This document shows, piece after piece, positions 891 through 20,000 of a stretch of DNA of 20,000 bases. The notes under the pieces were generated by a model, which was not told the origin of the DNA, did not search any database, and saw only the letters and a list, made by a program, of their open reading frames with translations. This DNA comes from an uncultured virus (IMG/VR IMGVR_UViG_3300035698_022242) (Duplodnaviria > Heunggongvirae > Uroviricota > Caudoviricetes). The first letter of the stretch is position 1; each line of letters opens with the position of its first letter. The stretch lies in the IMG/VR virus record IMGVR_UViG_3300035698_022242; one strand, given 5' to 3'. Made by a program: the position numbers and the translations under genes.

Positions 891-1908
891 AAAGATTATC
901 GCATTTCGTGGTGACCGTGCTGCTTGTTGGTTTTACCGGCTACATTCACCCCTGACTTATTTGGCGAAGAATAACCAAGATGCGTATGAGATTACCGTAT
1001 CGGGGGTTCTCAATAAGGCGCATTACGAGGGTTTTGACCTGGCGATCCTTCAACGCCAGTATGCGAAAGATGTATACGATGGTGTTCTGAATCTAAAAAA
1101 GAGTGGAACAAAATTAGTTTATGAGATTGATGATGATTTATTTAATATACCTAAATGGAATCCTGCGTACGAAACATTAGGAAAAGCTAATGTACAACTT
1201 GGTATTCGTGAATTTTTAAAAATAGTTGATGCCATTTTTGTAACTACAGAAAGTTTAAAAAAGATTTATGAACCCTTCTGTGATAATATATATGTTCTTC
1301 CCAATTCTATAAACTATGATGTGATCTATCCTAACGCAAAAAAGAATCAAAAGAAAGATGTAGTGTGCTGGCAAGGATCACTCACTCACGAAAAAGATGT
1401 TAAGATAATTGAGAAAAGCTTGCATAAGCTGGCGCAGTCAGATGAAGCAGTTTTAAAAATGTGGTGCGGGTTTAAGCAAAGAAAAACACTCAAAGAAGAC
1501 CGCACCCCTGTGTTTGATATCCCTGGAGCAGATGTTCTGCAGCTTGTTCAATTTGAATCCTTTTTTCAGATGTTCTCGCAAGTTGGGACGTCCATCGGAC
1601 TTGCCCCCCTTGCTGCAAACACATTCAATAAAAGCAAGTCTAATCTTAAGTTCTTAGAGTACACCGCGTTGGATGCCGTGACCGTTGCATCGTCTGTAGG
1701 CCCGTATAAGGATACTATTGAAGACGGGGTTACCGGGATACTTGTAGAGGACAATTCTACTTGGTACGATGTAATTATTGACCTCATTCGCGATAAGGAA
1801 TTGTATAACAAACTACTTACCAACGCGAAAGAAGTTGTACACACGGAGTATAATGTTGAAAGAAATTACAAAATGTGGCAAGATGCCATTGAACAAATCT
1901 TAGGATAG
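880..1908 (+). CDS. GT4-like (GT-B) glycosyltransferase
   Basis: DLAILQRQ, LVYEIDDDLF, VLPNSI, WQGSLTH and IGLAPLAANTFNKSKSNLKFLEY..VASSVGPY..IEDGVTG, a GT-B pattern common in phage GTs. Overlaps the upstream stop. Confidence 0.85.
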   Translation: MTSKKIIAFRGDRAACWFYRLHSPLTYLAKNNQDAYEITVSGVLNKAHYEGFDLAILQRQYAKDVYDGVLNLKKSGTKLVYEIDDDLFNIPKWNPAYETLGKANVQLGIREFLKIVDAIFVTTESLKKIYEPFCDNIYVLPNSINYDVIYPNAKKNQKKDVVCWQGSLTHEKDVKIIEKSLHKLAQSDEAVLKMWCGFKQRKTLKEDRTPVFDIPGADVLQLVQFESFFQMFSQVGTSIGLAPLAANTFNKSKSNLKFLEYTALDAVTVASSVGPYKDTIEDGVTGILVEDNSTWYDVIIDLIRDKELYNKLLTNAKEVVHTEYNVERNYKMWQDAIEQILG

Positions 1909-1916
1909 GAGATACA

Positions 1917-2342
1917 ATGCATGATACTGAATATTTTGTATTAGTAGTTATGACCGGCATGCCCCCATGGGTATGTGTACTGTCCGCTAGTGATTTGGAT
2001 GATTGGAAAGCGGGAGAATCGCGTACGGTGCTTGCTATAAGTCCTCGGTCATTTCAAATGCAGCAGGGCGCTAACCGCACAGTAGAAATGGTGATTGGTC
2101 CAGTGTATCCGATGCTGACAAAGCAGGCGGAGTTATGGTGCACGCCAACCTCTATTGAAGTAATTGGCGAGGTAATTGGCGAAGTGCTTGGTGATAACGA
2201 TTCTAGAAGTTGTGCGGAAGACCCACAATTGTTTAAGAGCTACATGTCAGCAGTGTCTACGTGGTTCAAAGAAGCCAGTGCTGCGCGTGCAGGGATCACG
2301 TTAGCAAAACCTGGGGACATGCCTAACGTACTTGAGCGGTAA
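1917..2342 (+). CDS. Hypothetical protein
   Basis: 141-aa ORF with SD AGGAG at 1907-1911; fits the operon tiling. Confidence 0.75.
   Translation: MHDTEYFVLVVMTGMPPWVCVLSASDLDDWKAGESRTVLAISPRSFQMQQGANRTVEMVIGPVYPMLTKQAELWCTPTSIEVIGEVIGEVLGDNDSRSCAEDPQLFKSYMSAVSTWFKEASAARAGITLAKPGDMPNVLER
2157..2192 (+). repeat. Imperfect 12-bp tandem repeat x3 (EVIG-EVIG-EVLG)
   Basis: GAAGTAATTGGC GAGGTAATTGGC GAAGTGCTTGGT. Confidence 0.8.
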
Positions 2343-2345
2343 ATC

Positions 2346-2720
2346 ATGGCTAAAACTCCAAAAAAAAATAAATCGTATCTTCTCTGTGTGCTAGATAAAA
2401 AATATCATTTGTATGTGTCTAGTAATGCATTTGTTATCAAAGAACGCATGATTAAAAAGAATGAAGAAACTTGGGTAGGAAAATTCTTTTACGCAAGTTT
2501 AGCAGACTCCCTTCGTGGATATGTTCGTCACAAGATGCGGACAAAGGCAACAGCAAAACAAGTGAACGGAGATGTTAAAGAACTTATTAAGCTCGTGGAT
2601 AATCTTCATAAATATCTGCAGAAATTTGGTAGTGAATTTGAACATGATTTGATGGAACGTTTGAAGGATCCTGTAGAAATGCATTTGCTTAATAATACTC
2701 TGGAGACTACCGATGCGTAG
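2346..2720 (+). CDS. Hypothetical phage protein (weak resemblance to DUF5405-type proteins)
   Basis: 124-aa ORF starting 3 nt after the previous stop. KYHLYVSSNAFVIKE...W...FYASLADSL recalls small phage proteins; the family call is tentative. Confidence 0.7.
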   Translation: MAKTPKKNKSYLLCVLDKKYHLYVSSNAFVIKERMIKKNEETWVGKFFYASLADSLRGYVRHKMRTKATAKQVNGDVKELIKLVDNLHKYLQKFGSEFEHDLMERLKDPVEMHLLNNTLETTDA

Positions 2721-3342
2721 TACGACGCGTATGGACTACACACTCCGAATAAGTAAGGAGTACGTTGTTGGATTGGTGAATTCGTTATTGTTTTCAAATA
2801 CTATCTTATGGGATGGAACAAACCAATTTAATGAACTTCCAATTTTTAGTAGCGACATTACTGAAGATGATAGACGAGAACAACGTGGTGCATTTTTTGT
2901 AGACAATCATTATGGTCGTGTACTTCGATTATTGGCTACCTTAGAAGAAGAAAACCTTCGAGGGAATAGTACATGTCGTGTGTGCTATAGATTGTCTAGC
3001 ATCCAAGAAAAAATGCGTATTGGATCTGCAAACCGTATATACTATCCTTTTACAATTCCTCTTGATTTTTCTGTATCAGATTTACGGTTAGGTGTGCGCA
3101 CTCCCTTTTTATCTTTTTCAGATAATACAGAGAAGGATAATGAAGTCAACTTATCTAAATTAATGGCGCTTATTGGGCATCTCGTTGCTAGTAAATTTAT
3201 TGTTGTAGACGATGAAAATCTCTTTTCTGATCTTCTTACAAGTCAACTGAGTACGCCTCCTATGGCTTCTGATCCACATTTCAACTTAATTTATGGGGTT
3301 GCACCCCCTGGTGATCAGGAGTGTTTAAGCGATGACTATTAA
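2713..3342 (+). CDS. Hypothetical protein
   Basis: 209-aa ORF overlapping both neighbours; no motif recognised. Confidence 0.7.
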   Translation: MRSTTRMDYTLRISKEYVVGLVNSLLFSNTILWDGTNQFNELPIFSSDITEDDRREQRGAFFVDNHYGRVLRLLATLEEENLRGNSTCRVCYRLSSIQEKMRIGSANRIYYPFTIPLDFSVSDLRLGVRTPFLSFSDNTEKDNEVNLSKLMALIGHLVASKFIVVDDENLFSDLLTSQLSTPPMASDPHFNLIYGVAPPGDQECLSDDY

Positions 3343-3901
3343 GGGTATGACATACGTAGGCATAGACCCGAGTTTAACAGGCACAGGGATTTGTGTATTT
3401 AATAGCGGTAGCGGTAACGATGATGAAATGCCTGTGTGTACAATTAAAACAGAAAAGAAAAACTTTGAGAATTCATTACAACGTTATTTATACATTGTAA
3501 ACACTGCGATTGCGTTTATTAAATCTGCTGCTATTTTTCCTCCCACTATTTTTATCGAGGGCTATTCATTTGGTTCTCGCGGTGCTGCAGTTTTTTCTTT
3601 AGCTGAATTTGGTGGACTTCTACGTTATAAAATTGCAAAAAGATTTAATGAGTACTATGAGATTCCACCTACAGTTCTTAAAAAATTTATTACAGGGAAA
3701 GGTAACTCCAATAAGAATGTTATGCTTGAGCAGACGTTTAGAAAATATGGAATAGGATCAGAAATACTTACGGATGATAATCAGGTTGATGCATTCAGCA
3801 TAGCACAGTTTGCTAAAACGATGCGTGAGGGGGCATTACCAAAAATTTTTATTGGTAAATATTCAAAAACAATTTGGAATGATGCGTCGTGCATGGAGTA
3901 G
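3332..3901 (+). CDS. ruvC: Phage-type RuvC-like Holliday junction resolvase
   Basis: RNase H-fold acidic motifs: YVGIDPSLTGTG, IFIEGYSFGS, LAEFGGLLR, IPPTVLKKFITGKGNSNK, DDNQVDA. Confidence 0.9.
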   Translation: MTIKGMTYVGIDPSLTGTGICVFNSGSGNDDEMPVCTIKTEKKNFENSLQRYLYIVNTAIAFIKSAAIFPPTIFIEGYSFGSRGAAVFSLAEFGGLLRYKIAKRFNEYYEIPPTVLKKFITGKGNSNKNVMLEQTFRKYGIGSEILTDDNQVDAFSIAQFAKTMREGALPKIFIGKYSKTIWNDASCME

Positions 3902-4515
3902 TAGACATAATTGTTATTGGTTTTGGTTTAGATAAGATAGAGATAGATTGTCTTAAATCAATTATAAAAAATACAGCACATCCTTATGTTCTTACGTACT
4001 ACGACAATAAAAAAAATAAATACACACTTACAGAACTTTGGAATATGTTTATCGCAAAAAGTTCTTGTGAGTATATTTGTTTATTAAATAATGATACAGA
4101 AGTATCCCCCTATTGGCTAACTAAGTTAATCGAAACATTCTCAATACGTGAACATTGTGGGTTTGTTGGACCATCTACAGATAATTGCCACAGCCCACAA
4201 TCTACTGTGCAAACCTTCGAAGAAGCTGAAAAACATAAGAATGTTGTACGTGTATTAGAGGATCCGATTAGTGGTTTTTGTGTTGCATTTAAAAGGGAAT
4301 TATTTGAAAAGCTTGGTGGATTTGACTGCAGGTATAAACACTACGGACAAGAATCTGATTTAATAAATAGGGGGCAAAGACAAGGGTATGAGGCTTGTTG
4401 GCGGGTAGACGCATTCGTACACCACATTGGTGAGGCAAGTGTTGGACCCGCGAAGATAGACGTAGAAGCAGCACGGAAAGAAGCACGAGCTATTTATTGG
4501 TCATCAAGGAAGTGA
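3889..4515 (+). CDS. GT2 family glycosyltransferase
   Basis: YICLLNNDTEV (DxD-like), VGPST, ISGFC, LGGFD..YGQESD, FVHHIG. Confidence 0.88.
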   Translation: MHGVVDIIVIGFGLDKIEIDCLKSIIKNTAHPYVLTYYDNKKNKYTLTELWNMFIAKSSCEYICLLNNDTEVSPYWLTKLIETFSIREHCGFVGPSTDNCHSPQSTVQTFEEAEKHKNVVRVLEDPISGFCVAFKRELFEKLGGFDCRYKHYGQESDLINRGQRQGYEACWRVDAFVHHIGEASVGPAKIDVEAARKEARAIYWSSRK

Positions 4516-4519
4516 CATC

Positions 4520-5500
4520 ATGCGTGTTCTATTCTTTTGTCCGCATACGCGGATTTCAGGCGGTGTAAAAGTAACATTCACAGTTGCAAACCATTTGGCT
4601 AAATGTGGTGTAGATGTTAATTTAGCTAGCTTAAAGAATTTTGAAAGACCTAATGACTGGTTTATTGATAAAATCCATTTTAATATAATTGATGGTAAGA
4701 GAATACCTTTAGGTGCGCTAAGTACTTATGATGCCTGCGTTACCTTTTGTGACGGTCCCAGTTTATCTGGGGCATCGTGTAAAAAAATATTATATCTGCA
4801 GGGGTTTGCTGGAACTAAAGTAGAAAAACAACGTATTTCTGAAAAATATGATCTTGTTGTAGCTACATCTAAATGGTTGGTAAAACTGGCTAAACAACAT
4901 AATGAAAATGTTATACTTATACCTCCCGGTATTGATAGCATTTTTGCTAGAAAAGAAGCGCCACTGTGCTCCAGATACCAAGCGATAGGGACGATACACC
5001 ACGCATCAAAAGATAAATGTTTTGATAATTTTACAGACATTATTACGCGATATTTTGTAAAGCGTAGAAAACCAGTGCACTGTGTTATTGTAACCGCACA
5101 ACCTTTAGCTAGTGTCCCAGCATTAGATAAGTACATGATTCCGTACTCTATTTACTATAAACCACCTCAAAGGTTATTACCATATATTTATTCCATGTGC
5201 AACGTGTGGGTATCTACGTCAATCAATGAGGGATTTGGACTGCCTCCGCTAGAGGCTATGGCATGTGGTTGTCCTGTAGTTATGTGTAAAAATCGTGGAT
5301 TAGATAAGATTGTACAGCATAAAGCAAATGCATTAGTATACACGGGAAATACCGATGCTGCTGAATATATTAATACATTACTTTATTTCAAACAATGTGT
5401 AAAGAAGTTAAGAAAAGTTGGGTATAATACAGCTAGTAAATTTTTATGGAAAGATTCATTAGACGCATTTTTTTATAATTTACACAAGGTGTGTACATGA
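4520..5500 (+). CDS. GT4 family glycosyltransferase
   Basis: N-terminal ISGGVKV..ANHL, IPPGID, and the EX7E motif STSINEGFGLPPLEAMACGCPVV. Confidence 0.9.
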   Translation: MRVLFFCPHTRISGGVKVTFTVANHLAKCGVDVNLASLKNFERPNDWFIDKIHFNIIDGKRIPLGALSTYDACVTFCDGPSLSGASCKKILYLQGFAGTKVEKQRISEKYDLVVATSKWLVKLAKQHNENVILIPPGIDSIFARKEAPLCSRYQAIGTIHHASKDKCFDNFTDIITRYFVKRRKPVHCVIVTAQPLASVPALDKYMIPYSIYYKPPQRLLPYIYSMCNVWVSTSINEGFGLPPLEAMACGCPVVMCKNRGLDKIVQHKANALVYTGNTDAAEYINTLLYFKQCVKKLRKVGYNTASKFLWKDSLDAFFYNLHKVCT

Positions 5501-6435
5501 CATATCTTTTTATCGAGCCTGGGTTACACATCTGTGGAGGCATACGGCGTATCGTAGAAATTGCCACAAGACTGCGTAATTTAGGGCATATCGTGTATGT
5601 AGCGTCCCCTAAAGGACGTGCGTGTACATGGTTAGACTCTAACTTCATCCCTATAAAATTAGCTAATATAAAAGAATTCAGTAAAAAACATAAAATAGAT
5701 ATCTGTATATTTAATTTAGCAGATCAATATACTGAAGCAAAAGCTGTTACTGCGGCAATTAAGATCTTTTGGGTACTCGCTCCTGAAGCGATGTATAAGA
5801 ACCCGGAAATACCTATTAAAGCATTAAATTGTGGCTTTAATCTATTATCCAATTCTTCATTTACAGTATCCTATATTAAAAAATATGCAAGAAATTATAA
5901 AGATAATATTACTATTATTCCAGGTGGCATAAATAAAACACATTTTAAATATGATTCTATTATTCCAAAAATTTATCATGTAATGTATTATGGATCTTCA
6001 CGCCCATGGAAAGGTGCACAAATTATTGAACGCGCACTAACTCCTTTACAATTGAGGCTCCATAAAATGAACACAGGAAATATGCTACAAACGCAGATGT
6101 ATAAATTGTACGCGTCAGCCACGTGCTATGTATCTGCGGGCCAGATTGAAGGATTTAATTTCCCAATACTTGAAGCTATGGCGTGTGGTTGCCCTGTTGT
6201 TTGTACGTCAGACGGTGGGAGTGCGGATTTTGTGAAAGATGGAATAAATGCAATTGTTGTAAATCGTACTGTGGAAGGGATTTCTAAGGGTGTTCGGAGA
6301 ATACTTGGTGATAAAGATTTGCGTAGAAAACTAAAACAAGGTGGATTAGAAACTGCATCAGCTAAGAAGTATAATTGGGATGTAGTAACTAAGCAATTCA
6401 GCGATTATGCAGAGAACCTTTTATATAGAGAATAA
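5497..6435 (+). CDS. GT4 family glycosyltransferase (paralog of 4520-5500)
   Basis: CGGIRRIVEIA, IPGGIN, RPWKG, EGFNFPILEAMACGCPVV. The ATG at 5497 overlaps the upstream TGA (ATGA); the alternative start is GTG at 5491. Confidence 0.9.
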   Translation: MTYLFIEPGLHICGGIRRIVEIATRLRNLGHIVYVASPKGRACTWLDSNFIPIKLANIKEFSKKHKIDICIFNLADQYTEAKAVTAAIKIFWVLAPEAMYKNPEIPIKALNCGFNLLSNSSFTVSYIKKYARNYKDNITIIPGGINKTHFKYDSIIPKIYHVMYYGSSRPWKGAQIIERALTPLQLRLHKMNTGNMLQTQMYKLYASATCYVSAGQIEGFNFPILEAMACGCPVVCTSDGGSADFVKDGINAIVVNRTVEGISKGVRRILGDKDLRRKLKQGGLETASAKKYNWDVVTKQFSDYAENLLYRE

Positions 6436-6472
6436 AAAAAAATACACTTAACTTTTTTTAGAGGTATACACA

Positions 6473-7216
6473 TTGTTAGATCTAACTGTTATAATAGCTT
6501 GTAAAAATAGGAAAGAAAATCTCGATTATTGCTTGAGGTCTATCTCTGGTGGATCTATACTTCCAAAGGTGTACATTGTGGATTTTGGAAATAAAACACC
6601 AATAAAGACACCGTATAAGTGGGTAAAGGTTATCAGAGTTACCAATAACACTGAGAAGTTTCATAAGGCGCGGGCTGTAAATATTGGTTTAAAACAGGTG
6701 AAAACGAAATATGCATGTGTTACAGACGCAGATCAAATTTTTAGCAAAAACTTTTTTAGTACAGTAGTGAGGGCACTGGAGGAAAACTCTAAAAGGTTTA
6801 TAATGTGCAAAACATATGCTTTGCAAGGTATCCCTAAGACAGTACAACCAGAAAGTGTTTTTGAAAAATACGGGGTACTTTTAAAGTTGGCAAAGAAAAC
6901 TAGGGATGCCTATGGTGACGGGTGCTGCCATGCAACGCTAGCGTCTTGGTTTAGGAGGACGGGTGGGTATGAAGAATCTTTTTTGGGGTGGGGGTATGAA
7001 GATAGTGATATGGCTTGGAGAGCGCGAAAGCTTGGTTTGACTTTATATAGTATAAACAGACATGTCTCTATGATTCATTTGCCACATCCGATAGAAACAC
7101 AAGTCGGGGGATATAGGCACAAGCATGTTGAGAGGACTAATAAGGTACGCTATGCAAAGAGAAGACAAAGGGGCATTTTAGTTGGAAATGTGGGTAGAAA
7201 GTGGGGGATACTTTGA
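6473..7216 (+). CDS. GT2/GT7-like (galactosyltransferase-type) glycosyltransferase
   Basis: TTG start with SD GAGGT at 6461-6465. Motifs IVDFG, FHKARAVNIG, TDAD (DxD) and GGYEESFLGWGYEDSD (GT7 C-terminal WGxED). Confidence 0.88.
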   Translation: MLDLTVIIACKNRKENLDYCLRSISGGSILPKVYIVDFGNKTPIKTPYKWVKVIRVTNNTEKFHKARAVNIGLKQVKTKYACVTDADQIFSKNFFSTVVRALEENSKRFIMCKTYALQGIPKTVQPESVFEKYGVLLKLAKKTRDAYGDGCCHATLASWFRRTGGYEESFLGWGYEDSDMAWRARKLGLTLYSINRHVSMIHLPHPIETQVGGYRHKHVERTNKVRYAKRRQRGILVGNVGRKWGIL

Positions 7217-7512
7217 AAATATTTGTTGATATAGATGGAACTATTTGTCGTACAAAGGATGCAAATTATTCGGAAGCGGTACCCATCCATGCAAGTATAC
7301 AAAAGATAAATAAGCTTTATGACTTAGGGCACGAAATTATTTTTTGGACTGCTCGTGGGTCTGCAAACAAAGAAGAGTCTACTGAAATCCTAAATATAAC
7401 TAACAAGCAGCTACAGGAGTGGGGTTGCAGGTATACACAATTATCAGTGGGTGAAAAGCCCGTGTATGACCTACTGATATGTGATAAATCTGTCAGGATC
7501 GATGAGTTATGA
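7213..7512 (+). CDS. Small cap-less HAD-superfamily phosphatase
   Basis: IFVDIDGTIC (motif I), FWTARG (motif II), KP.YDLLICDKS (motifs III/IV). The TTG at 7213 overlaps the upstream TGA; the ORF track uses GTG at 7201. Confidence 0.85.
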   Translation: MKIFVDIDGTICRTKDANYSEAVPIHASIQKINKLYDLGHEIIFWTARGSANKEESTEILNITNKQLQEWGCRYTQLSVGEKPVYDLLICDKSVRIDEL

Positions 7513-8165
7513 AATCTGTAGCTAAATTGGCTGGTAGGCATAAGAATAAGGACATCTACGTTATAGGTGCGGGACCTTCTTGTAATTTTCTTAGTAGATC
7601 TTTTTTCAATGGCAAAATAGTAGTTGGTGTTAATCAGACATATAAGAAGTTTCCATGTAACTATGTAGTTCGCAAAGAGCATAGCGATGTGGTGAAAACT
7701 CTAAAGATGGCTCCAAAGTCTTTTGTTATTGTTTCAAAACTGAATTATGGATCTGCGAAGTCTAAGATAGCTGGTATAACCCATAATAATTTGCATATTT
7801 TTAATCATCTACTAAATAAGGGAGCTATAAATACAGCTTCATTTGGAAAGCCTGGGTTTTTAGTAGTGAGTAACTCTACCATTACATCAGCTATCCATTT
7901 TGCATACGTCTTAGGAGCAGCTAACATTATTTTAGTTGGTGCCGACCACGGGACACTAGATGACAAATTTGTGTATGATGGCTATTATGAAGATATAAAG
8001 CAAACACCTTGGAAGAATTGGGAACAATATGTAGGATGGTTAAAAATTCTCAGTAAGGATACCGAGAGTATCAGCGCTAAAATACGTGAAAAGGGTGTTA
8101 ATGTTGTTAGCTTAAACCCATTTATAAACTTTGGGTTAGAAGGGCACATATACAAGTATGGGTAA
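7509..8165 (+). CDS. Maf/DUF115 (MptE-like) domain protein, putative CMP-nonulosonate transferase
   Basis: IYVIGAGPS, IVVGVN, NSTITSAIHFAYVLGAANIILVGADH, the pattern shared by Maf/DUF115 and CstII-like sialyltransferase folds. Lies directly upstream of neuA and neuB. Confidence 0.7.
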   Translation: MKSVAKLAGRHKNKDIYVIGAGPSCNFLSRSFFNGKIVVGVNQTYKKFPCNYVVRKEHSDVVKTLKMAPKSFVIVSKLNYGSAKSKIAGITHNNLHIFNHLLNKGAINTASFGKPGFLVVSNSTITSAIHFAYVLGAANIILVGADHGTLDDKFVYDGYYEDIKQTPWKNWEQYVGWLKILSKDTESISAKIREKGVNVVSLNPFINFGLEGHIYKYG

Positions 8166-8793
8166 TTATACTATAGTCGTGCCAGCGCGTAGCGGTTCAA
8201 AGGGTGTACCCCATAAGAACAGGATGCTCATTCAGAGTACTCTTAACATAGTTTCGGAGTCTATGCGTACGCACACTATAATTACCACTGATGACGAGGT
8301 TATCATTGAAGCATATCAAGGTAATCATATAGTTCATAGGCGAAGCATTGCGACTAGTTCTGATACAGCCTCTATGAAGTCTGTGATGTTAGAGGTGGTT
8401 AACGCCGGACTTTTGGGAGCAGAAAATATTATCGTATTATATCCAACGTATCCTACAAGGACATGGGAAGATGTTTTGGATGCCATTAATTTTTTTGAAC
8501 GATCTGCTGCGAAATCATTACTATGTAGGATACCGTATATTGGTCAAAGCCCTTACCTTTTAATGCATCCTGTTGGAGAGTATTGTGGGAGACAGGTTAT
8601 AGATCACGACTTGTATAGAAGGCAGGATTATTTACCTGTGTTTGAGCTTTCTCATTGCGTTTGCATTTTTTCTGCGTCTATTCTTCATGAGTTAAATCAA
8701 AATTTGTACAACAGAGATACTGTGTTTATGGACATGTGCAAGAAAGTGGACGTAGACACAGAACAGGATATAAGCACATGGAAACAAAACTGA
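8158..8793 (+). CDS. neuA: Acylneuraminate (CMP-nonulosonate) cytidylyltransferase
   Basis: IVVPARSGSKGVPHKN, ITTDD, HRR...SSDTAS, LYPTYPTR, RRQD, VDVDTEQD. Confidence 0.92.
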   Translation: MGNYTIVVPARSGSKGVPHKNRMLIQSTLNIVSESMRTHTIITTDDEVIIEAYQGNHIVHRRSIATSSDTASMKSVMLEVVNAGLLGAENIIVLYPTYPTRTWEDVLDAINFFERSAAKSLLCRIPYIGQSPYLLMHPVGEYCGRQVIDHDLYRRQDYLPVFELSHCVCIFSASILHELNQNLYNRDTVFMDMCKKVDVDTEQDISTWKQN

Positions 8794-9632
8794 TAGGTGA
8801 AATAGGTATAAACTATGCTTTTGGTGATGACAAGCAGAATTTTGTCGGTAATGCAAAAAAGTTAATTTTTATAGCGTCAATAGCTGGGTGGGGGTACGTG
8901 AAACTCCAAACGAGGACACCAGATGTTTGTGTACCAGAAAGTGAGAAAGGGTTGCCAAAGCAAGTACCCTGGTCTTCACAGCCAACAACTTATTTGGGGT
9001 ATAAAAAAGATGTGGAATTTTCTAAGGATGCCTATGTAGAGCTTCGTGAATATGCTGCATCATTAGGTTTAACTCTTTTTTCATCTGTTTGGGATATTCA
9101 GGCAGTTGATTTTCTTCGTGATATTTCTGCTAATAAGATTTTGAAGATTCCTTCGGCTCTATTAACTAACACCTCTTTACTAAGGTATGCTAGGAAAAAC
9201 TGTGAGCTACTCATACTCTCTACTGGAATGAGTACGGAGGATGAGATTGAGATAGCTGTAAGGGAGGGGGAGCCCGATGTGTTGATGCACACAGTGTCTG
9301 CATACCCAGCTATCGTTGAAGACCTGAATTTGCAGTACATAACGTGGTTAAAACAGAAGTATGGACATAAATGTTGTATTGGGTATTCAGGGCACGAGTT
9401 TGGGCTAACTATGTCTATTGTCGCTGCGGTACTAGGCGCTGAATGGGTAGAGCGCCATATTACATTAGATAGAACCCTTTGGGGGTCAGACCAGTTAGCT
9501 AGTGTGGAACCGGTCGGTATGATAAAGCTAAAAAAGTCGTTGGATGATGTGCAAAAGGCTTTTGTTAATTTTCCCGGTCCACGGAAGGTACATCTTTCAG
9601 AAATGGAAAAAGTAAAATCTCTACGTGGGTAA
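8778..9632 (+). CDS. neuB: N-acetylneuraminate/nonulosonate synthase family protein lacking the C-terminal SAF/antifreeze-like domain
   Basis: GEIGIN, VKLQ, SVWD, KIPSA, ILSTGMST, MHTVSAYP, IGYSGHE, VERHITLDRTLWGSDQLASVEP. Likely start is the ATG at 8778 (METKLIGEIG). Confidence 0.93.
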   Translation: METKLIGEIGINYAFGDDKQNFVGNAKKLIFIASIAGWGYVKLQTRTPDVCVPESEKGLPKQVPWSSQPTTYLGYKKDVEFSKDAYVELREYAASLGLTLFSSVWDIQAVDFLRDISANKILKIPSALLTNTSLLRYARKNCELLILSTGMSTEDEIEIAVREGEPDVLMHTVSAYPAIVEDLNLQYITWLKQKYGHKCCIGYSGHEFGLTMSIVAAVLGAEWVERHITLDRTLWGSDQLASVEPVGMIKLKKSLDDVQKAFVNFPGPRKVHLSEMEKVKSLRG

Positions 9633-9635
9633 CTA

Positions 9636-10699
9636 ATGAGAATACTGCACATATATGCAACTGTCAATAATTCTGGCGATCAGATGATCGGGTATGCAAC
9701 ACGCCTCATGTTTGAGAGGTACGTTAAAGTAACGGGTTGGGTTAGTGAGAATATTAGAAAGGTTTTTAACTATGATGATGTAAAGAAAATTAATACGTTT
9801 GATGCCGTGGTAGTTGGCCCAGGAGGAATTTTTTTGTATGACGAGACAAATTCAAAGGCTGGCACAAGGGAGATATCTGGATACCAATGGTTGATTTCTG
9901 AGGCACTCCTTAGTAAGATAAAAGTTCCAGTACTGGTTGTAGCTGCTGGTTGGAACCAGTTTCGTGGTAGGGCTGCTTTGTACCCGACCACTCTGAAAGG
10001 GATATCTGACTTAATTTCTAAGTCTAGCTATTTTTCTGTTCGACATACCGGTGATGCCCATAGTTTAGAAAATTTTCTTCATTTGCATGAAGGTAGTGTT
10101 AAAGTATTTATGTGCCCAACCTTGTTGCTTGGCACGTCTCATAAGGCAGAAGTGCAAAGAAAGCGAATTTTAGCCATTCAGATTGCGGGGGATAGACCTA
10201 AACTTCGTTATACCGTTGGAATAAAAAGAACTTATGAAATTCTTTCAGAGTACATATCGGTAATGTCGAAGGACTTCCCGGAGATACATATAGTTGACCA
10301 GTGTTGTGATACAGGATTTTTTAAATTTATAAAGGAACGAAGAAAAGATGTGAAATTTGTTTCATTGGTAAACAAGTCACTAGACCAGCAGCTAACGTAT
10401 TATAAAGAAATAGGGGTGATGTTGGCCACTAGAGGGCATGCCCAAATGATCCCAATAGGATGCGCTACCCCAACTGTTTCTCTAATAACGCACAATAAAG
10501 TAGCGTATTTCTTGGATGACCTAAAAAGGCTACTCCTGCTTCACGAATTTCTGAGACGGGGGTAGATATTACGCGGGTAAGGTCAGGTGATCTGGTGCAG
10601 GCGACACGTATAGCACGTTCGCTGGACTACACTTTGGTGAACAGTGCTATAGAGAAATCTATTATAGCTTCTTTCCAAGAAATGTTGAGTATTTTATGA
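9636..10699 (+). CDS. Polysaccharide pyruvyl transferase family protein (CsaB/WcaK-like), apparently frameshifted near 10523-10562
   Basis: NNSGDQMI, VVGPGGIF, SVRH..D, ATRGHAQMIP, SLITHNKV. Frame 0 stops at 10565. The -1 frame is open from 10520 to TGA 10697-10699, which overlaps the next ATG. Confidence 0.8.
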
Positions 10700-11334
10700 C
10701 TTGTCCTGTTTGTCAATCCCCAGATGTTATTCATAAGGTGGCTACTAGTTCCTTTTTTAATTTAGATATAGATCAGTGTAACTTCTGTGGTCTTAGTTGG
10801 GTTAACAGGGGCGATGATCAGGTTAGCGAGGTGGAAGAACAAAAAAAGTTTGACCACATTTTTGGTACAAACAGGAAAAGAAACGAGTATTATTTAGAGA
10901 AATTATGTGCTTTTTCTGACGTGAAAACTGTTTTGAAAGTTGGCTCACCAAAAGATTTTTCGTTTTTGCTAGAGATTGGGAGAAGGTATCCATTTATTCA
11001 CCTTTTTTCTTATGATTTATTACATAAGGATACACCAAAAAATGTGGAACCAATCAGCGACATCACAGAGTACTACTCTATAATTTTTTGTATCCACACG
11101 TTAGAGCATATTTTGCCTACTGATACCCAGGCTGTAGTAGCTAAAATGGTTAATCATTGTGATTATTTATTCTTGGAAGTACCTAACTGCCATTCAATTG
11201 ATCGTTTATGTGAGAGTAGCAAGCACCCGCACAACGTGTTCTTTACTAAGAAGTCGCTGACTAACTTATTAGGAACTGACTCTATTTGCAGAACTACAAA
11301 TCATGTAATTCAGATTGAGAGAAAAAATGTATAA
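10696..11334 (+). CDS. Class I SAM-dependent methyltransferase-like protein with N-terminal Zn ribbon
   Basis: CPVC...CNFC, degenerate motif I (VLKVGS), IIFCIHTLEHI, LFLEVPN, HPHNVFFTKKSL, typical of glycan-cluster methyltransferases. Confidence 0.7.
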   Translation: MTCPVCQSPDVIHKVATSSFFNLDIDQCNFCGLSWVNRGDDQVSEVEEQKKFDHIFGTNRKRNEYYLEKLCAFSDVKTVLKVGSPKDFSFLLEIGRRYPFIHLFSYDLLHKDTPKNVEPISDITEYYSIIFCIHTLEHILPTDTQAVVAKMVNHCDYLFLEVPNCHSIDRLCESSKHPHNVFFTKKSLTNLLGTDSICRTTNHVIQIERKNV

Positions 11335-12061
11335 CGTAGATGTAGTGATTATTAGCTGGGCAAAGACCAAAGAGCTATACGACATTACGTGGAATGGACT
11401 TTCTTCTTTATTTGGATGTAAGCCAACCATGGCGTATCATGCTTATGTTGTTGAGTCAAACCCAGATGTTACGTATGACCAGTTTAATTCTGATGTGCAT
11501 ACATGTACAACTATCCACCCCACTACAGAATTTGGGTATAACAAATATTTAAATATTGGTAGAAGGTTAGGAAAGTCAGAGTACGTGGTTCTTTGTAATA
11601 ATGACTTGACTTATGATTGCGGGTGGGCTGCTAATATTATAAGAGAGATGAACAAAGATGCAGACCTTTTATCTGCTTCTCCTTGGTGTCCTCAGATACA
11701 TAGAGACAGGCATAAGAAGGGAAATGTGGGGAATTGTGTTTATGGGTATAGTATAATTACTAAGGTTACTGGATGGTGCATTTTTCAGAAGAGGAAGATA
11801 TATGATTTACTTGGTGATTTAGATGAGCGTTTTGTATTTTGGTATAGTGACAATGATTATTGTATGACTATTCGAGAGAAGGGTATTAAACATGCTTTAG
11901 TTATTAACTCTTGGGTGGAACATCATGGAAAACGTGTTGGCAAAACTGCGGATAATGTATTATCAAAAGAAAAACTAAGAACATATACATCATTGCAAAA
12001 GAAAATATTTTTGAATAAATGGAAAAATATAAATAATATACTAGTAAGCCCTAAGGATTAA
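11327..12061 (+). CDS. GT2 family glycosyltransferase
   Basis: VDVVIIS, YVVES, FGYNKYLNIG, LCNND, GWC, LDERFVFWYSDNDY, VEH. Likely start is the ATG at 11327. Confidence 0.85.
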   Translation: MYNVDVVIISWAKTKELYDITWNGLSSLFGCKPTMAYHAYVVESNPDVTYDQFNSDVHTCTTIHPTTEFGYNKYLNIGRRLGKSEYVVLCNNDLTYDCGWAANIIREMNKDADLLSASPWCPQIHRDRHKKGNVGNCVYGYSIITKVTGWCIFQKRKIYDLLGDLDERFVFWYSDNDYCMTIREKGIKHALVINSWVEHHGKRVGKTADNVLSKEKLRTYTSLQKKIFLNKWKNINNILVSPKD

Positions 12062-12062
12062 C

Positions 12063-12596
12063 ATGAGTAAACTAACTGTAATATTAGCTCATAAAAATAG
12101 ACAACATAATTTAGAGTTTTGCTTAGAATCTATTAATTCATCAAATAAAATACCTCGTGTTATATTGGTTGATTTCGGAAGTACCATACAACCAAGATAT
12201 ACATATCCATGGTTACAAATTATTCATGTAACACATAATACCGATTTTTTTCAAAAAGCACGAGCTTTAAATATTGGAATTAGGCAGACAAAAACTGTTA
12301 ATTTGTGTACTACTGATGTTGATCAGATATTCAATAAAAATTTTTTTAGTGTAGTTGATAATACACTTACTACGCGTAAAAGTGTGTATGTAATGTGTCG
12401 TACGTACGTATTGCGTGAATTGCCTTCAACTATTTCCCCCAAAAACATAATGATAAATTTTGATAAACTTTTAATAGAAGCAAAAAAAATAAGAAAAATA
12501 CCATTTGGTGATGGATGTTGTCATGGGATGCCTACATATGTTGCGCATGCATTAGGAGGGTATGATGAAAGTAGCAGATTATTCGCAAAAACATGA
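12063..12596 (+). pseudogene. C-terminally truncated GT2/GT7-like glycosyltransferase, paralog of 6473-7216
   Basis: Aligns by eye with 6473-7216 (LTVI.A.KNR, VDFG, KARA.NIG, TD.DQIF.KNFFS, GDGCCH, GGY.ES) but stops 7 codons after GGYDES, without the WGxED motif. Confidence 0.7.
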
Positions 12597-12705
12597 CAAA
12601 TGAGTTATACATTGTGACAATAATAAAAATTGCGCAACCAGAACAGGCGTAGTAAAAAAATTGATTAATATAAGTTATAAAATCAGGTTATTATGAAATT
12701 TTTCT

Positions 12706-12710
12706 AGGAG
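12706..12710 (+). promoter_or_regulatory. Shine-Dalgarno site
   Basis: AGGAG 5 nt before the GTG at 12716. Confidence 0.65.
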
Positions 12711-12715
12711 ACTAT

Positions 12716-13429
12716 GTGAATGATGTTATTTCAGTATTAGTTCTTACATATAATAGACGTAATATTGTCTCTATGTGTCTCCCATACATCGCAGAACATT
12801 TAGAAAAATCAAATTCTGAGATATTAATCTGGGATAATGGATCAACTGATGGAACATTAGATTGGATTTTTCAGTTCGCACATTCAAATACAAAAAATAA
12901 AATCAATGTATTTTTTTCTGAAAAAAATTATGGAGTTGAAGCTATTAATTTTTTAGTAGACAAAACTGTAGGAGAATATATCATAAAAGTGGACAGTGAT
13001 ATAATTCCGCCCGTTCAGTATGATACGCGTATGTTAACCGCTTATATAGCATGTGCAAAGGAAAACATTGCTTACTTATCTTGGGATATTCCTTGGGGGC
13101 ACACATCTTTTGCCAAACGTTCTGGTATGAAATTGTATAAAGGTGATCGAGGAACTATTGTGTCTGTTACCCCTAATACACGCGTACTCTGTAATTATGC
13201 TCCAAGCAAATGGATGGTGAATGGTGCGTGCAGATTTTCAGAAAAAGATGTATTTACTAAACTGGGTAGTCATCCACAAGGTAAGCGGTATGGAGTAGAC
13301 ACGTATGTGAGTGCTCAGGCCGAGAAAGCTGGTTATACATGTGGATTCATAGACACCCACGATAAGGCACAGCACATCACACAAATGGATATTATGGAGA
13401 AAATCTATGGCAAAACATCAACCACTTAG
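12716..13429 (+). CDS. GT2 family glycosyltransferase
   Basis: ISVLVLTYNR, EILIWDNGSTDGT, NYG, GEYIIKVDSD. Confidence 0.88.
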   Translation: MNDVISVLVLTYNRRNIVSMCLPYIAEHLEKSNSEILIWDNGSTDGTLDWIFQFAHSNTKNKINVFFSEKNYGVEAINFLVDKTVGEYIIKVDSDIIPPVQYDTRMLTAYIACAKENIAYLSWDIPWGHTSFAKRSGMKLYKGDRGTIVSVTPNTRVLCNYAPSKWMVNGACRFSEKDVFTKLGSHPQGKRYGVDTYVSAQAEKAGYTCGFIDTHDKAQHITQMDIMEKIYGKTSTT

Positions 13430-14213
13430 TATTATTATTCCTGTCGTTAATCAACCTGAAATGACTGTGCGGTGTTTTCAGTCAATACGTGCAAATACAA
13501 AAATGCCGTATGAGATAATTTGGGTTGATAATAATTCAGATCCTGAAAGCTTTGGAATAATTAGAAGACAAGCTACGCGTCCTAGAGTTAATTGTAAATT
13601 GATACGAAATGAATACAATGTTGGTTTTATCAAAGCAATAAACCAAGGTATTGCAGAAGCTAAAGGTGAATACATAATTTTGTTAAACAATGATACAGAG
13701 GTAACGTGGCGATGGGCTACAAAATTAATAAAACCACTTATTAATGATAAAAAGGTTGGAGCGGTAGGCCCCGTCACACAAAGTAAAATTGCCTGGCAAG
13801 AAGCAATGAGTCTTAATGCTCGTTGGGATTTAGGCCTACCCAAGTACACAAAAGCACAAAAAAATAGATATGGTAAAGTACTCGATGAACTATTCAAAGA
13901 CAGATACATTGATGTAGAACGCCTACCTCTGTCTTTTTTCTGTGCTGCTTTTCGGAGAAGTACGTTCACAGAGCTTGGCGGTCTTTGTGAGGAGTTTTCT
14001 ATCGGCTTAGGTGATGATGACGAGTATGGGATGCGTATGCGCGCAAATGGCTTTAAATCGCTTCTCAGCCTGGGTACCTTCGTGTATCACGCACATCGAA
14101 CAACGTTCAATGCTCTGCAATTGGGTGTGGATTCTTTGCGGAGGTACAACATGAAAATTTTGCGAAGAAAAGAAAAAGAATTAAAGGCTGCTGAAAAAAA
14201 GAAGGCGATATAG
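13407..14213 (+). CDS. GT2 family glycosyltransferase
   Basis: LSIIIPVVN, EIIWVDNNS, NVGFIKAINQG, LLNNDTEV, GDDDEY, FVYHAH; SD GGAG at 13396-13399. Confidence 0.9.
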   Translation: MAKHQPLSIIIPVVNQPEMTVRCFQSIRANTKMPYEIIWVDNNSDPESFGIIRRQATRPRVNCKLIRNEYNVGFIKAINQGIAEAKGEYIILLNNDTEVTWRWATKLIKPLINDKKVGAVGPVTQSKIAWQEAMSLNARWDLGLPKYTKAQKNRYGKVLDELFKDRYIDVERLPLSFFCAAFRRSTFTELGGLCEEFSIGLGDDDEYGMRMRANGFKSLLSLGTFVYHAHRTTFNALQLGVDSLRRYNMKILRRKEKELKAAEKKKAI

Positions 14214-16952: not shown

Positions 16953-18337
16953 TGCCAGCACTTGCATCTGCTACCGTAGAGCGCAGGGCGCTATCTGCGC
17001 TACTGATTGAGCCACATCACCTTAAGTCGCTTAGTATTCATGCTGATACGTTTTTTTCATCAAAAAATAAAACAGCATTCAAATTAATAAAAAGTTATGT
17101 AGATCGGTATAAAAAGTCACCGACGGTAAAAACACTTAAGATATTTATAGATAAAGAAAAAGATGCAGAAAAAATTGATGAATTATTAGATGGATTAGAT
17201 GTAATAAAAAAATTACCAACTGTTAAAGAAAAAGAAGTAGATTTCTATTTAGAAGAGGCAGATAATTTACGTATTGGTAGAGAAATCGCAAAAACAGCAG
17301 AATTGATCAAAGATAAATTTGAAGGCGGTGAAAAGGATTATATGAATGTTTTGCAAGATGTTATGAAAAAACTTTTAACAATTTCTACAGATAAAGATGG
17401 GGGGGTTACTAGAGGAATGATCCATGAAAATGTTAAGGACCGCTACGATATATTCGCTAAAAAACTCGGTACAGACGACAAAGGAGAGGTCATTCCCTTT
17501 GGGATGTCTGCACTGGACTCCATTGTAGGCGGTATGCGCAAAACATTTGTTACGCTCCTATACTCTAAGACTGGTGGCGGTAAAACGCGTACAGCAATCA
17601 ATATGGCGTATAATGCTGCGATGGCTGGGTTCAGCGTGATCTATTTCTCCTTAGAGATGTCATTTAATCTCCTTTCCTCATGTTTTGATAGCCGCATGGC
17701 TATGGTGGACAGTCGTAACATTATTTTCAGTAAAATGTCTAAGAGTGAGATAAAAAAGTATAAACAAGCTTTACGTAAACAATACGAAGATAAATTAGAT
17801 GTGTATGTAGTAGATATTTCTATTGGGAATACATCATCAAAGATCATGGAAGAAATTGAGCTATATCAGATGACTCAAGGAAAAACTCCTGATCTTGCAA
17901 TTATTGATTATGCCAATATTATGCGACCACAAGCGGTATATTCTGGTCGATCTGAACAATACGATAAATTATTTCAAGAGATTCATAATATTGCTAAATT
18001 TTACAATGTGTCGATTCTTACCGCTACACAGGAAAGTAGAGAAGCATCGAAAGGAGATATTGAAGCTAAACAACATAAAATACAGATAGAACAAGGTGTT
18101 CATAATATTGGATTATCTAATTTTATGGCTCCACACTGTGAAACAGTTATTCGTTTAAAACAGGACTCAGCTGACCGCGCACAAAATAAATTATGGGCAA
18201 TTATTGATAAAAGTCGTTATGGAAATATTGGAGAAGCAATTCCATTAACTGCATTGTGGGATATCACGTATGTGGGTGACCGGTCTAGTAACCTGCGTAT
18301 AAAAAAGAATCCGAAAAACGGTTTATACGATGGTTGA
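16952..18337 (+). CDS. dnaB: DnaB-like replicative helicase
   Basis: IPFGMSALDSIVGG, SKTGGGKT, YFSLEMS, IIDYANIM, LTATQ, IDKSRYG; TAATG overlap with the loader gene. Confidence 0.9.
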   Translation: MPALASATVERRALSALLIEPHHLKSLSIHADTFFSSKNKTAFKLIKSYVDRYKKSPTVKTLKIFIDKEKDAEKIDELLDGLDVIKKLPTVKEKEVDFYLEEADNLRIGREIAKTAELIKDKFEGGEKDYMNVLQDVMKKLLTISTDKDGGVTRGMIHENVKDRYDIFAKKLGTDDKGEVIPFGMSALDSIVGGMRKTFVTLLYSKTGGGKTRTAINMAYNAAMAGFSVIYFSLEMSFNLLSSCFDSRMAMVDSRNIIFSKMSKSEIKKYKQALRKQYEDKLDVYVVDISIGNTSSKIMEEIELYQMTQGKTPDLAIIDYANIMRPQAVYSGRSEQYDKLFQEIHNIAKFYNVSILTATQESREASKGDIEAKQHKIQIEQGVHNIGLSNFMAPHCETVIRLKQDSADRAQNKLWAIIDKSRYGNIGEAIPLTALWDITYVGDRSSNLRIKKNPKNGLYDG

Positions 18338-18776
18338 CATTGTAGACATATATGCGCAAGCAGGTGTTCTCCTGGTTGTTATGGGCGACCGATGGCATGC
18401 TCCATGCCCATTTCATGAGGAAACGAAGCCTTCATTTGTTGTTTACCCGGATGGTGGATACCACTGTTTTGGGTGTGGTGCGCACGGAACACTGCAGGAT
18501 ATGGGAGAATATGCTGGTGTAGACTTTATTATTATTCCCGACTTAGCATACGAGCAAGATCATACAGAGGTCGAAATAAAAAAATACTTGAAAAAAGTTG
18601 AAAAAAGTTTATTATCAGTAGTACAAACATGGTCAAATACACAAAAGATAAAGATGTTCGATAAATTTGATGATATGTATGGTGATTGTGTAGCGAATTC
18701 TAGAGATGTCGGTTCTTCTTTAGTATCGCTCATTTCATATATTCGTAAAGTTATGGGTAAAGAACTGTTCTCTTAA
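18330..18776 (+). CDS. Stand-alone CHC2 zinc-finger (DnaG primase zinc-binding domain) protein
   Basis: CPFHEETKPSFVV...YHCFGCGAHG followed only by about 90 aa of helical sequence; no TOPRIM motifs. Confidence 0.85.
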   Translation: MVDIVDIYAQAGVLLVVMGDRWHAPCPFHEETKPSFVVYPDGGYHCFGCGAHGTLQDMGEYAGVDFIIIPDLAYEQDHTEVEIKKYLKKVEKSLLSVVQTWSNTQKIKMFDKFDDMYGDCVANSRDVGSSLVSLISYIRKVMGKELFS

Positions 18777-18790
18777 TCTTTGGAGATATT

Positions 18791-20000
18791 TTGCGAGCTA
18801 ATAAATTACAGGAAATTGTGGATGATATTGCGCATAAAAAGAATGACGATGGTACATGGGATTTAAATCATGAACGTGCGGATGAATTTTATAAGACTGT
18901 TTATCCTTATGTAGCAAAATCTGCGAGAATATCAGATCCATTTGATCCTGAAGATGCCGTGGGGGACGTGTTAGAAGGGTTATGGAAGTCATTAATGCGT
19001 TATGGTCCACGATATCAAGGTAAGCCATTTGTTAATATGTTAAAAATGAAAACTAATAATGTACTTACAAATAGATTTAAAAAAAGAACTGCATTAAAAC
19101 ATAAACTAAATTATACAAGTGAATCTTTTGATGGACTTAAGTATGAAGACAATGAAGGTATTTTACGTGGAGGAAGTAAAGAACCTTGTGGAGGATTTTT
19201 AGATATTTTATCTGTTGAACAAGTATTAACTAAACGACAAAAACGCGAGATACTTGAAATACAACAGGAATACAAGTGTTTGGAGGAAGAAAAAATGCCA
19301 CATAAATTAGAAACGGATGAATTTTTACATTATTTTAGAAGATTGGGTCATGAAGAAAAATTAGTGGTATTTCAAAATATTTTTTGTCTTATGGCTGGGC
19401 TCAAACACCGACGTACCAAGGAGATTTTTAGTCTCTTTGTGGATGGTGACCAAAAAGGTGCACCTATACAAAAAGAAACGCCGCGCAAGATGCGCATAGA
19501 CGTAGTTTCTGAGTATATTACCTTATTAGGGACAGTACCAGAAGGAGAGGATGACATGGATAAATATGTACAGATTGGATCAGGGGTTGTTGGTGAGCAG
19601 TTTTTAACTCCTATGTTGAAAAAAATTGAAGTTGTCAAAGTAAAAGGTGATTCTGTTAGAATTAAAATCATGCCTTATGATGATCAAATTGATGTTCCTG
19701 TAACTTATTTAGCTATTCCTATGAGTTATGCGGAAGATCATCCAGAAGACCTAGACCCAACGCAGGAAACACAGTCAAAGATTGCAGAAGAAACTGAAGA
19801 AGAAGAAACTGAAGAAGAAGAAACTGAAGAAGAAGAAACTGAAGAAGAAGAAACTGAAGAAGAAGAAACTGAAGAAGAAGAAGAAACTGAAGAAGAAGAA
19901 GAAACTGAAGAAGAAGAAGAAGAAGAAACTGAAGAAGAAACTGAAGAAGAAACTGAAGAAGAAACTGAAGAAGAAACTGAAGAAGAAACTGAAGAAGAAA
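18791..20000 (+). CDS. Sigma-70 region-2-like domain protein with acidic T(E)n tail, 3'-partial (absent from the ORF track)
   Basis: SD GGAG at 18782-18785, TTG at 18791, and no stop to the window end. Translation: MRANKLQEIV...DEFYKTVYPYVAKSAR..DPEDAVGDVLEGLWKSLMRY...FVNMLKMKTNNVLTNRFKKR...LTKRQKREIL...AEETEEEETEEEE. Confidence 0.75.
   Translation, partial: MRANKLQEIVDDIAHKKNDDGTWDLNHERADEFYKTVYPYVAKSARISDPFDPEDAVGDVLEGLWKSLMRYGPRYQGKPFVNMLKMKTNNVLTNRFKKRTALKHKLNYTSESFDGLKYEDNEGILRGGSKEPCGGFLDILSVEQVLTKRQKREILEIQQEYKCLEEEKMPHKLETDEFLHYFRRLGHEEKLVVFQNIFCLMAGLKHRRTKEIFSLFVDGDQKGAPIQKETPRKMRIDVVSEYITLLGTVPEGEDDMDKYVQIGSGVVGEQFLTPMLKKIEVVKVKGDSVRIKIMPYDDQIDVPVTYLAIPMSYAEDHPEDLDPTQETQSKIAEETEEEETEEEETEEEETEEEETEEEETEEEEETEEEEETEEEEEEETEEETEEETEEETEEETEEETEEE
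19787..20000 (+). repeat. Perfect coding tandem repeat ACT(GAA)n encoding T(E)3-7
   Basis: ACT(GAA)4 x5 (19793-19867), ACT(GAA)5 x2 (19868-19903), ACT(GAA)7 x1 (19904-19927), ACT(GAA)3 x6 (19928-19999), continuing past the edge. Confidence 0.97.

Follow-up and report, generated by a model that had tools for sequence, protein, structure and literature searches.

A predicted sigma region 2-like domain joined by a charged linker to a winged-helix domain in a replication-module protein of uncultured phages

The last gene in a 20,000-nucleotide stretch of DNA from an uncultured virus of the Caudoviricetes (IMG/VR record IMGVR_UViG_3300035698_022242; the whole stretch is hereafter called the window) encodes the greater part of a protein whose predicted fold makes it a member of the sigma-70 superfamily. 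It belongs to an uncharacterised family, without a Pfam, PHROG or NCBIfam name, whose genes occur in large uncultured phages at one set position, flanked by those for primase and polymerase. Our best reading, held with confidence slightly above even, is that a small phage sigma factor became fused to a DNA-binding protein of the replication module, giving a sigma-like factor in which a tethered winged helix replaces region 4. Binding to RNA polymerase and promoter-specific initiation are predicted activities of such a protein. Phage sigma factors are one of the chief means by which host transcription is captured by large phages, and those described are either small complete sigmas or a T4-type region-2-only protein that needs separate partners. 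The family would represent a third design, in which sigma region 2 is tethered by a long, charged and disordered leash to a winged-helix DNA binder unrelated to sigmas, and may reveal a novel means by which phages direct the host RNA polymerase. An annotation made initially from the sequence alone had proposed a new architecture, and this view holds in that neither GenBank phages nor the literature searched, in which few subscription journals were covered, yielded a matching arrangement; the combination of sigma region 2, acidic linker and winged helix therefore seems undescribed.

The reading frame starts at a TTG at position 18791 of the plus strand and runs for 403 codons to the end of the window without a stop. 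A Shine-Dalgarno-like GGAG (18782-18785) lies 5 nt upstream of the TTG and is itself immediately preceded by the TAA of the upstream ORF. The initial annotation had described this frame of at least 403 codons as open in the window, which is correct, and the motifs it quoted (DPEDAVGDVLEGLWKSLMRY, MLKMKTNNVLTNRFKK, LTKRQKREIL and KKIEVVKVKGDSVRIKIMPYDDQIDVPV) are all present in the translation. It had also proposed extending the contig, and the stop codon is indeed reached in a second virus record, G001 (39,042 bp, estimated to be 21% complete), which is 100% identical to the ORF across 910 nt and in which the frame extends to 491 aa. Over its first 1070 nt the ORF is the same in both records, the sole differences being in-frame indels within a repeat. 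For the genome of the window itself, the C-terminus is read across from G001 and presumably alike. The last 70 or so residues before the window end are T(E)n, for which a tandem repeat of 12-15 nt (19786-20000) codes. Because the G001 frame continues to 491 aa, this tract is an internal linker and not the polyacidic tail for which it had first been taken: in G001 it is followed by a Lys-rich patch, TTSKMKKGKGKKMTKTR, and then by a winged-helix domain of about 65 aa that is predicted to be folded. The presence of this C-terminal domain also departs from the earlier picture of a gp55-like protein consisting of region 2 only.

An AlphaFold2 model was obtained from an alignment of 92 rows, comprising the window protein and 91 of the 120 matches of a profile search described below (the 29 omitted were mostly the weakest or of odd length). 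It has a mean pLDDT of 76, with clearly separated domains. The features of the gene and the predicted protein are as follows:

18782..18785, plus strand: Shine-Dalgarno-like GGAG, read directly from the sequence
18791..20000, plus strand: the gene's 5' 403 codons, open at the window end; full length 491 aa in the near-identical G001 (L001:1501-2976)
18791..19120, plus strand, residues 1-110: sigma region-2-like helical N domain (pLDDT 93-98)
19121..19561, plus strand, residues 111-257: variable helical middle region including LTKRQKREIL and LGHEEKLVVFQNIF, with no recognised fold (pLDDT 35-84)
19562..19750, plus strand, residues 258-320: small SH3-like beta-barrel (pLDDT 84-97)
Residues 323-342: single helix in the model
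19787..20000, plus strand, residues 333 to 403 and beyond: T(E)n polyacidic tract, an internal disordered linker with a tandem repeat of the GAAGAAGAAACT type
Residues 345-414: disordered linker (pLDDT below 50)
Residues 423-491 (G001 numbering): winged-helix domain with three helices and a beta hairpin (pLDDT 94-98)

A structural search independent of Foldseek, run against 48,161 PDB representatives, indicated that residues 1-110 would adopt the fold of region 2 of the sigma-70 family, with ECF-type sigmas closest and RpoS, BldN, sigma32, pro-sigmaK and others further down the match list. At the sequence level the resemblance is fainter. Pfam Sigma70_r2 (PF04542) aligned with the window protein at E 0.16 (12.2 bits, cut-off 24) and gave E<=1 in four of eight family members, the best reaching 5.4e-5 and 23.3 bits against the same cut-off of 24. 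TIGR02937 returned no match to the window protein at E<=0.1; among nine fusion proteins it was found in three, over the sigma region 2 half only, and the SigE model in one, all under cut-off (24.9 bits against 42.9 for the best relative with TIGR02937). The failure of the window protein to reach the curated region 2 cut-offs (PF04542, TIGR02937) counts against a sigma identity, as does the outcome with a narrow, 11-row profile restricted to the N domain of the fusion family, which retrieved no sigma factor from the PDB by sequence. The likeness to sigma region 2 noted at the outset is thus upheld by fold, but not by the curated sequence thresholds. PHROG 1740 ("RNA polymerase sigma factor") matched residues 4-120 of the window protein at E 2.8e-4 (profile positions 36-143 of 567) and seven of the eight family members, with a best value of 3e-7; no other sigma-annotated PHROG was returned for the window protein. 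When the N domains were combined with small relatives into a 35-row profile, the best PDB match was the M. tuberculosis ECF sigma SigH (E 6.3e-4), aligned from region 2 into region 4. The sigma region 2 motifs are strongly conserved throughout the family, including the part that aligns with the promoter-recognition region of ECF sigmas.

The C-terminal half of the protein proved harder to place. In the model, the last domain displays the three helices and the beta-hairpin wing expected of a winged helix. The possibility that it is a diverged sigma region 4 was not supported, the hhalign probability being 3%. The beta-rich segment, initially suspected to be SH3/KOW-like, does resemble that class, weakly and at the level of fold (tested as a five-stranded SH3-like barrel: KOW, Tudor, PWWP, uL2 domain). 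A Foldseek search with the whole model gave no match at E<=0.001 in the PDB or BFVD, a further point against the sigma reading, and PDB sequence searches with the full-length and winged-helix profiles returned nothing meaningful. The best named lead is HARE-HTH: in the ESM Atlas the top three named clusters for the C-terminal domain were of this type (0.82-0.83, a lead only), and one of seven C-terminal domains (L010) matched PF05066 at E 6.3e-4, with 20.5 bits against a cut-off of 25.9. No HARE-HTH sequence match was obtained for the window protein, nor in G001 or G002.

A word-index search with the full protein was dominated by poly-E words and gave one match, and residues 1-335 gave two relatives; scans of viral and metagenome contigs supplied further loci of the family. 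Neither tblastn of the full protein against 50,697 GenBank phage records nor a pattern and tblastn scan of 185,579 species genomes detected a relative. A profile search of 1.84 billion cluster representatives yielded 120 matches at E<=0.001 (75 at <=1e-10 and 33 at <=1e-30), which are of three kinds. The first comprises full-length proteins, between 363 and 641 aa long. Of the 92 aligned rows, 26 (the window protein and 25 cluster representatives) combine the N domain, the barrel, a linker of at least 30 aa and the winged helix, and so answer in the affirmative the question, raised early on, of whether homologues keep the fusion. The second kind, of about 200-290 aa, matches over the N domain only and consists, as judged from the alignment, of a sigma region 2-like domain, a short linker and a sigma region 4-type HTH. 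Scans of 33 of these small relatives found PHROG 1740 in nine, PHROG 351 in one and Pfam Sigma70_r4 in one, and in two of them (P0070 and P0098) TIGR02937 covered both halves (positions 2-158 of 165, and 4-162). The third kind, of 60-340 aa, matches over the C-terminal module only: 28 rows of the 92-row alignment carry barrel, linker and winged helix, while others have the winged helix with a basic leader, one of them with four AT-hooks ahead of it. Pfam recognised no shared family among 57 matches of the C-module type.

These comparisons, made on sequence, show that the N domain is homologous to the region 2 half of small two-domain phage sigma factors (PHROG 1740, about 200-240 aa), including an N-terminal extension ahead of region 2. 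The PHROG 1740 proteins end in a sigma region 4-type HTH, whereas in the window protein that end has been replaced or followed by a long C-terminal module; the window protein matches the N half of the profile only, and the small relatives reach approximately position 214. We infer that a small phage sigma gene was fused to a neighbouring DNA-binding gene of the replication module, and that its own region 4 decayed or was lost. Fusion is the simplest history; the reverse, loss of the N part from a fusion protein, is conceivable. Judged by region 2 fold, the closest known proteins are the ECF (group 4) sigmas, such as M. tuberculosis SigC, SigH and SigK, B. subtilis SigW and P. aeruginosa AlgU. 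In contrast to these, the window protein has no recognisable region 4, scores below every curated sigma cut-off, and carries about 380 extra residues that make up the SH3-like barrel, the acidic disordered linker, the Lys patch and the winged helix.

According to the sigma-like reading, the region 2 domain would engage the host RNA polymerase through its beta-prime clamp helices and deal with a -10-like element, while the winged helix and the Lys patch, held on a long flexible leash, would serve as the upstream DNA anchor, which is the role of region 4. The winged helix could bind either a DNA element lying upstream or phage DNA more generally. The acidic block beside the basic one would act as a spacer and probably as an electrostatic auto-inhibitor that masks the DNA-binding end in the free protein, similar in principle to sigma region 1.1 or to the acidic region of the delta subunit. 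A parallel is offered by the T4 late transcription set, formed by gp55 (sigma region 2-like), gp33 and the gp45 clamp. Both would rely on a region 2-type module without a working region 4, anchored through another DNA-linked element, and both have a link to replication genes, but the anchor is a sliding clamp in T4 and a covalently tethered winged helix in the window protein. If this function is confirmed, the family would offer a tractable case for studying the replacement of region 4, the control of DNA binding by acidic and basic disordered blocks and, possibly, the coupling of transcription to replication.

The genomic position of the gene must be weighed against this reading. The genes upstream of it in the window encode, in order, a UvsW-like helicase, a 176-aa ORF, a DnaC-like ATPase, a DnaB-like helicase and a CHC2 primase-like protein, the last being defined as:

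18330..18776, plus strand: 148-aa CHC2 zinc-finger-only primase-like neighbour (Pfam Zn_ribbon_DnaG, E 5.2e-14; TIGR01391 over residues 2-66 only)

This neighbour, which recurs in the related loci, comprises the CHC2 zinc finger of DnaG and a C-terminal part of about 80 aa. Downstream of the gene, in G001, come a family A DNA polymerase and a RecA/UvsX-like recombinase. The slot between the zinc-finger primase-like and DNA polymerase genes is occupied by the fusion in the seven loci where both flanks are visible (window/G001, L004, L006, L008, L009, L012 and L017). The flanking ORFs of the related loci have the same order and size, their identity having been established by family scans for window/G001 only and by eye for L004, L006 and L017. 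The same slot holds a stand-alone C module (barrel, charged linker and winged helix) in L016 (168-178 aa, record G003) and L023 (234 aa). G003 is a 183.8-kb record with terminal repeats, rated complete, and the sigma region 2 domain of the fusion family was absent from its whole genome at E<=0.01. Canonical complete sigmas are encoded as separate genes in G003 (L021:1477-2091) and G004 (L022:1477-1995), with TIGR02937 scores of 92 and 90 bits, and G004 carries both the fusion and the canonical sigma. Since both phages have a separate sigma, and the C module of G003 lacks region 2, the conserved function of the slot may not be transcription initiation.

An alternative that we consider unlikely but credible is that the C module is a DNA binder of the replication module, acting for example at the origin or fork, and that the fused region 2 brings the host RNA polymerase to replicating DNA. 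Origins could then be activated or primed by transcription, or late transcription could be tied to replication, in what would amount to a one-polypeptide counterpart of the T4 gp55-gp33-gp45 logic. The placement of the gene between the zinc-finger primase-like and polymerase genes in seven fusion and two stand-alone loci speaks for it, as do the order of helicase, ORF of about 180 aa, DnaC-like and DnaB genes upstream with a RecA-like gene downstream, and the retention of the C module in the slot of G003 without the fusion family's region 2. Position by itself, however, shows no function, and the protein bore no resemblance to known initiators, clamps or SSBs, the PHROG "O-like" match (E 0.045) falling in the low-complexity tract. 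The DNA repeat in the linker is unconserved among relatives, so that its GAA-type units are not an iteron array and lend no support to an origin inside the gene. Nor need RNA polymerase replace a missing primase core. The DnaG catalytic core of G003 (G003:6386-6733) lies far from the zinc-finger gene, about 2 kb from the canonical sigma, and its presence led us to discard the idea of a sigma-directed RNA polymerase standing in for the core; the records G001, G002 and G004, which are incomplete, showed no such core. The separation of zinc finger and core in G003 suggests a split primase, as far as sequence can tell. A broader version of this alternative, to which we give the same low credence, regards the slot gene as encoding an undescribed replisome-linked DNA-binding protein (SH3-like barrel, blocky acidic and basic disordered region, winged helix) that captured a region 2 in one phage lineage, coupling host RNA polymerase to replicating DNA or to an origin. 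Coupling of this kind would let transcription activate or prime replication, or let replication license late transcription; the polyampholyte linker would then serve as a condensate driver or as an auto-inhibitory mimic of nucleic acid.

The polymerase gene next to the slot deserves a few remarks. The enzyme has 845 aa (L001:3019-3909 / L002:1712-4249), is encoded just past the window end and bears an N-terminal extension of about 170 aa, found also in L004, L016, L017 and L023, for which the PHROG matches say only "DNA polymerase". This extension may be a domain of the uracil-DNA-glycosylase type. Among cultured phages, the polymerase is nearest to those of SPO1-like Herelleviridae, at about 30% identity. 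In one member of that group, Lysinibacillus phage LysYB1 (L024, OP628075.1), a gene for an HU-like DNA-binding protein lies directly upstream of the polymerase gene, so that a different DNA binder appears at the analogous position in Herelleviridae.

The linker bears on two further alternatives. In the window protein, D/E account for 58 of its first 82 residues and K/R for 8 of its last 25. Across the fusion proteins the body of the linker is net acidic in 21 of 26 and its last 25 residues are net basic in 18 of 26, and the stand-alone C modules behave alike (22 of 28 and 18 of 28, respectively). A body with at least 50% D/E is found in only three of the 26 fusions and in one of the 28 stand-alone modules. 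The DNA repeat is strong in this phage (L001) and its closest relative (L006) and nowhere else; it is moderate in L017, whereas L008, L009 and L016 lack it. Its copy number varies among near-identical sequences, as seen between the window (19786-20000) and L001:2496-2712, which differ by in-frame indels only, and between L006 and P0002, whose proteins have 476 and 467 aa. Given this variation and the rarity of such acid-rich linkers, the extreme T(E)n tract is a lineage-specific, slippage-prone exaggeration of a general design made of acidic block, basic block and winged helix, and not a conserved functional core.

The recurrence of this acidic-then-basic pattern in fusions and stand-alone modules would also suit a condensate or scaffold co-factor, in which the disordered region concentrates RNA polymerase on phage DNA by phase separation or multivalent clustering and region 2 is only a polymerase-binding handle. 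A precedent exists in the transcription co-factor SPO1 Gp27, reported to have a folded N domain, a Lys-rich DNA-binding disordered region and a folded RNA polymerase-binding C domain, and to support weak phage sigmas (PMC13401047). The two proteins would be alike in architecture (folded domain, charged disordered region and folded domain, with DNA at one end and RNA polymerase at the other), and the kinship of the phage polymerase with SPO1-like enzymes is in keeping with the parallel. Gp27, however, has 155 aa, with a disordered region that is Lys-rich and not acidic, and its short helical domains differ from the winged helix and SH3-like fold predicted here. The charge pattern is no more than compatible with phase separation, and we judge this explanation improbable.

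Another possibility, which we regard as highly improbable, is a host shut-off decoy, whose region 2 would compete with the host sigma for the core enzyme while the polyanionic tract fills the DNA channel as a nucleic-acid mimic, blocking host transcription. The predicted region 2 fold and the very acidic tract of the window lineage agree with it, and so does the precedent of the B. subtilis delta subunit. The N domain of the Bacillota delta subunit (RpoE) is of the HARE-HTH type, the same that gives the best named lead for the C-terminal domain of the window protein, albeit sub-threshold in one of seven relatives and absent for the window protein itself. In both proteins a winged-helix-type domain stands beside a long polyanionic disordered region that contains or adjoins a Lys tract. 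The order is nevertheless reversed, with the acidic tract preceding a protein-terminal winged helix in the window protein, and delta has neither a sigma region 2 nor an SH3-like domain. In B. subtilis, delta consists of a folded N domain and an acidic C-terminal region with a net charge of -47 (PMC7749165). Against a decoy, extreme acidity is limited to the three fusions mentioned above, a conserved winged helix of the DNA-binding type and a Lys patch would be superfluous, and the region 2 motifs are strongly conserved, those aligned with promoter recognition included. The sigma-like factor with a tethered winged helix remains our preferred reading, although not all of these explanations exclude one another.

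The integrity of the gene was examined in contigs from four public runs (X1-X4, labelled salt lake metagenome, X1 being the possible source), which cover parts of 18300-19795. Their long pieces showed no other letter and no gap relative to the window, and outside the repeat the ORF contained neither a stop nor a frameshift, so that the stop codons once envisaged as splitting it did not appear there. Every X1-X4 contig breaks at the acidic-tract repeat and none spans it, and the length given for the tract is therefore provisional. That the frame is not one gene, but an assembly artefact or two genes joined across the low-complexity repeat, is barely credible, since the lack of a bridging short-read contig in the four runs is outweighed by the same unbroken frame from N domain to winged helix in G001, by its continuity in independent contigs with non-repetitive linkers (L008, L009, L010, L011, L012 and L017) and by the 25 cluster representatives that carry it.

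Some minor features of the region were also recorded. The window start corresponds to position 6401 of G001, yet 18791 corresponds to 25193, a net length difference of 2 nt upstream of the gene. A 31-nt stretch (18574-18604) is common to short contigs in X2 and X4, with one nucleotide missing at 18590 and unrelated sequence thereafter, and could reflect either a diverged relative or a short element held in common. G001 encodes, at G001:37431-37484, a 94-aa ORF with a weak sigma region 4-type HTH match (12.6 bits, E 0.005) and, upstream of the window, a transposase-like ORF adjoining a strand switch (L003:5232-5855; PHROG 513, E 2.3e-16). Finally, the part of the window upstream of the replication module (880-14213) is unusually rich in glycosyltransferase-like ORFs and also includes a phosphoheptose-isomerase-like one:

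880-1908, 4520-5500, 5491-6435, 11315-12061, 12716-13429 and 13407-14213: glycosyltransferase-like ORFs
7201-7512: phosphoheptose-isomerase-like ORF
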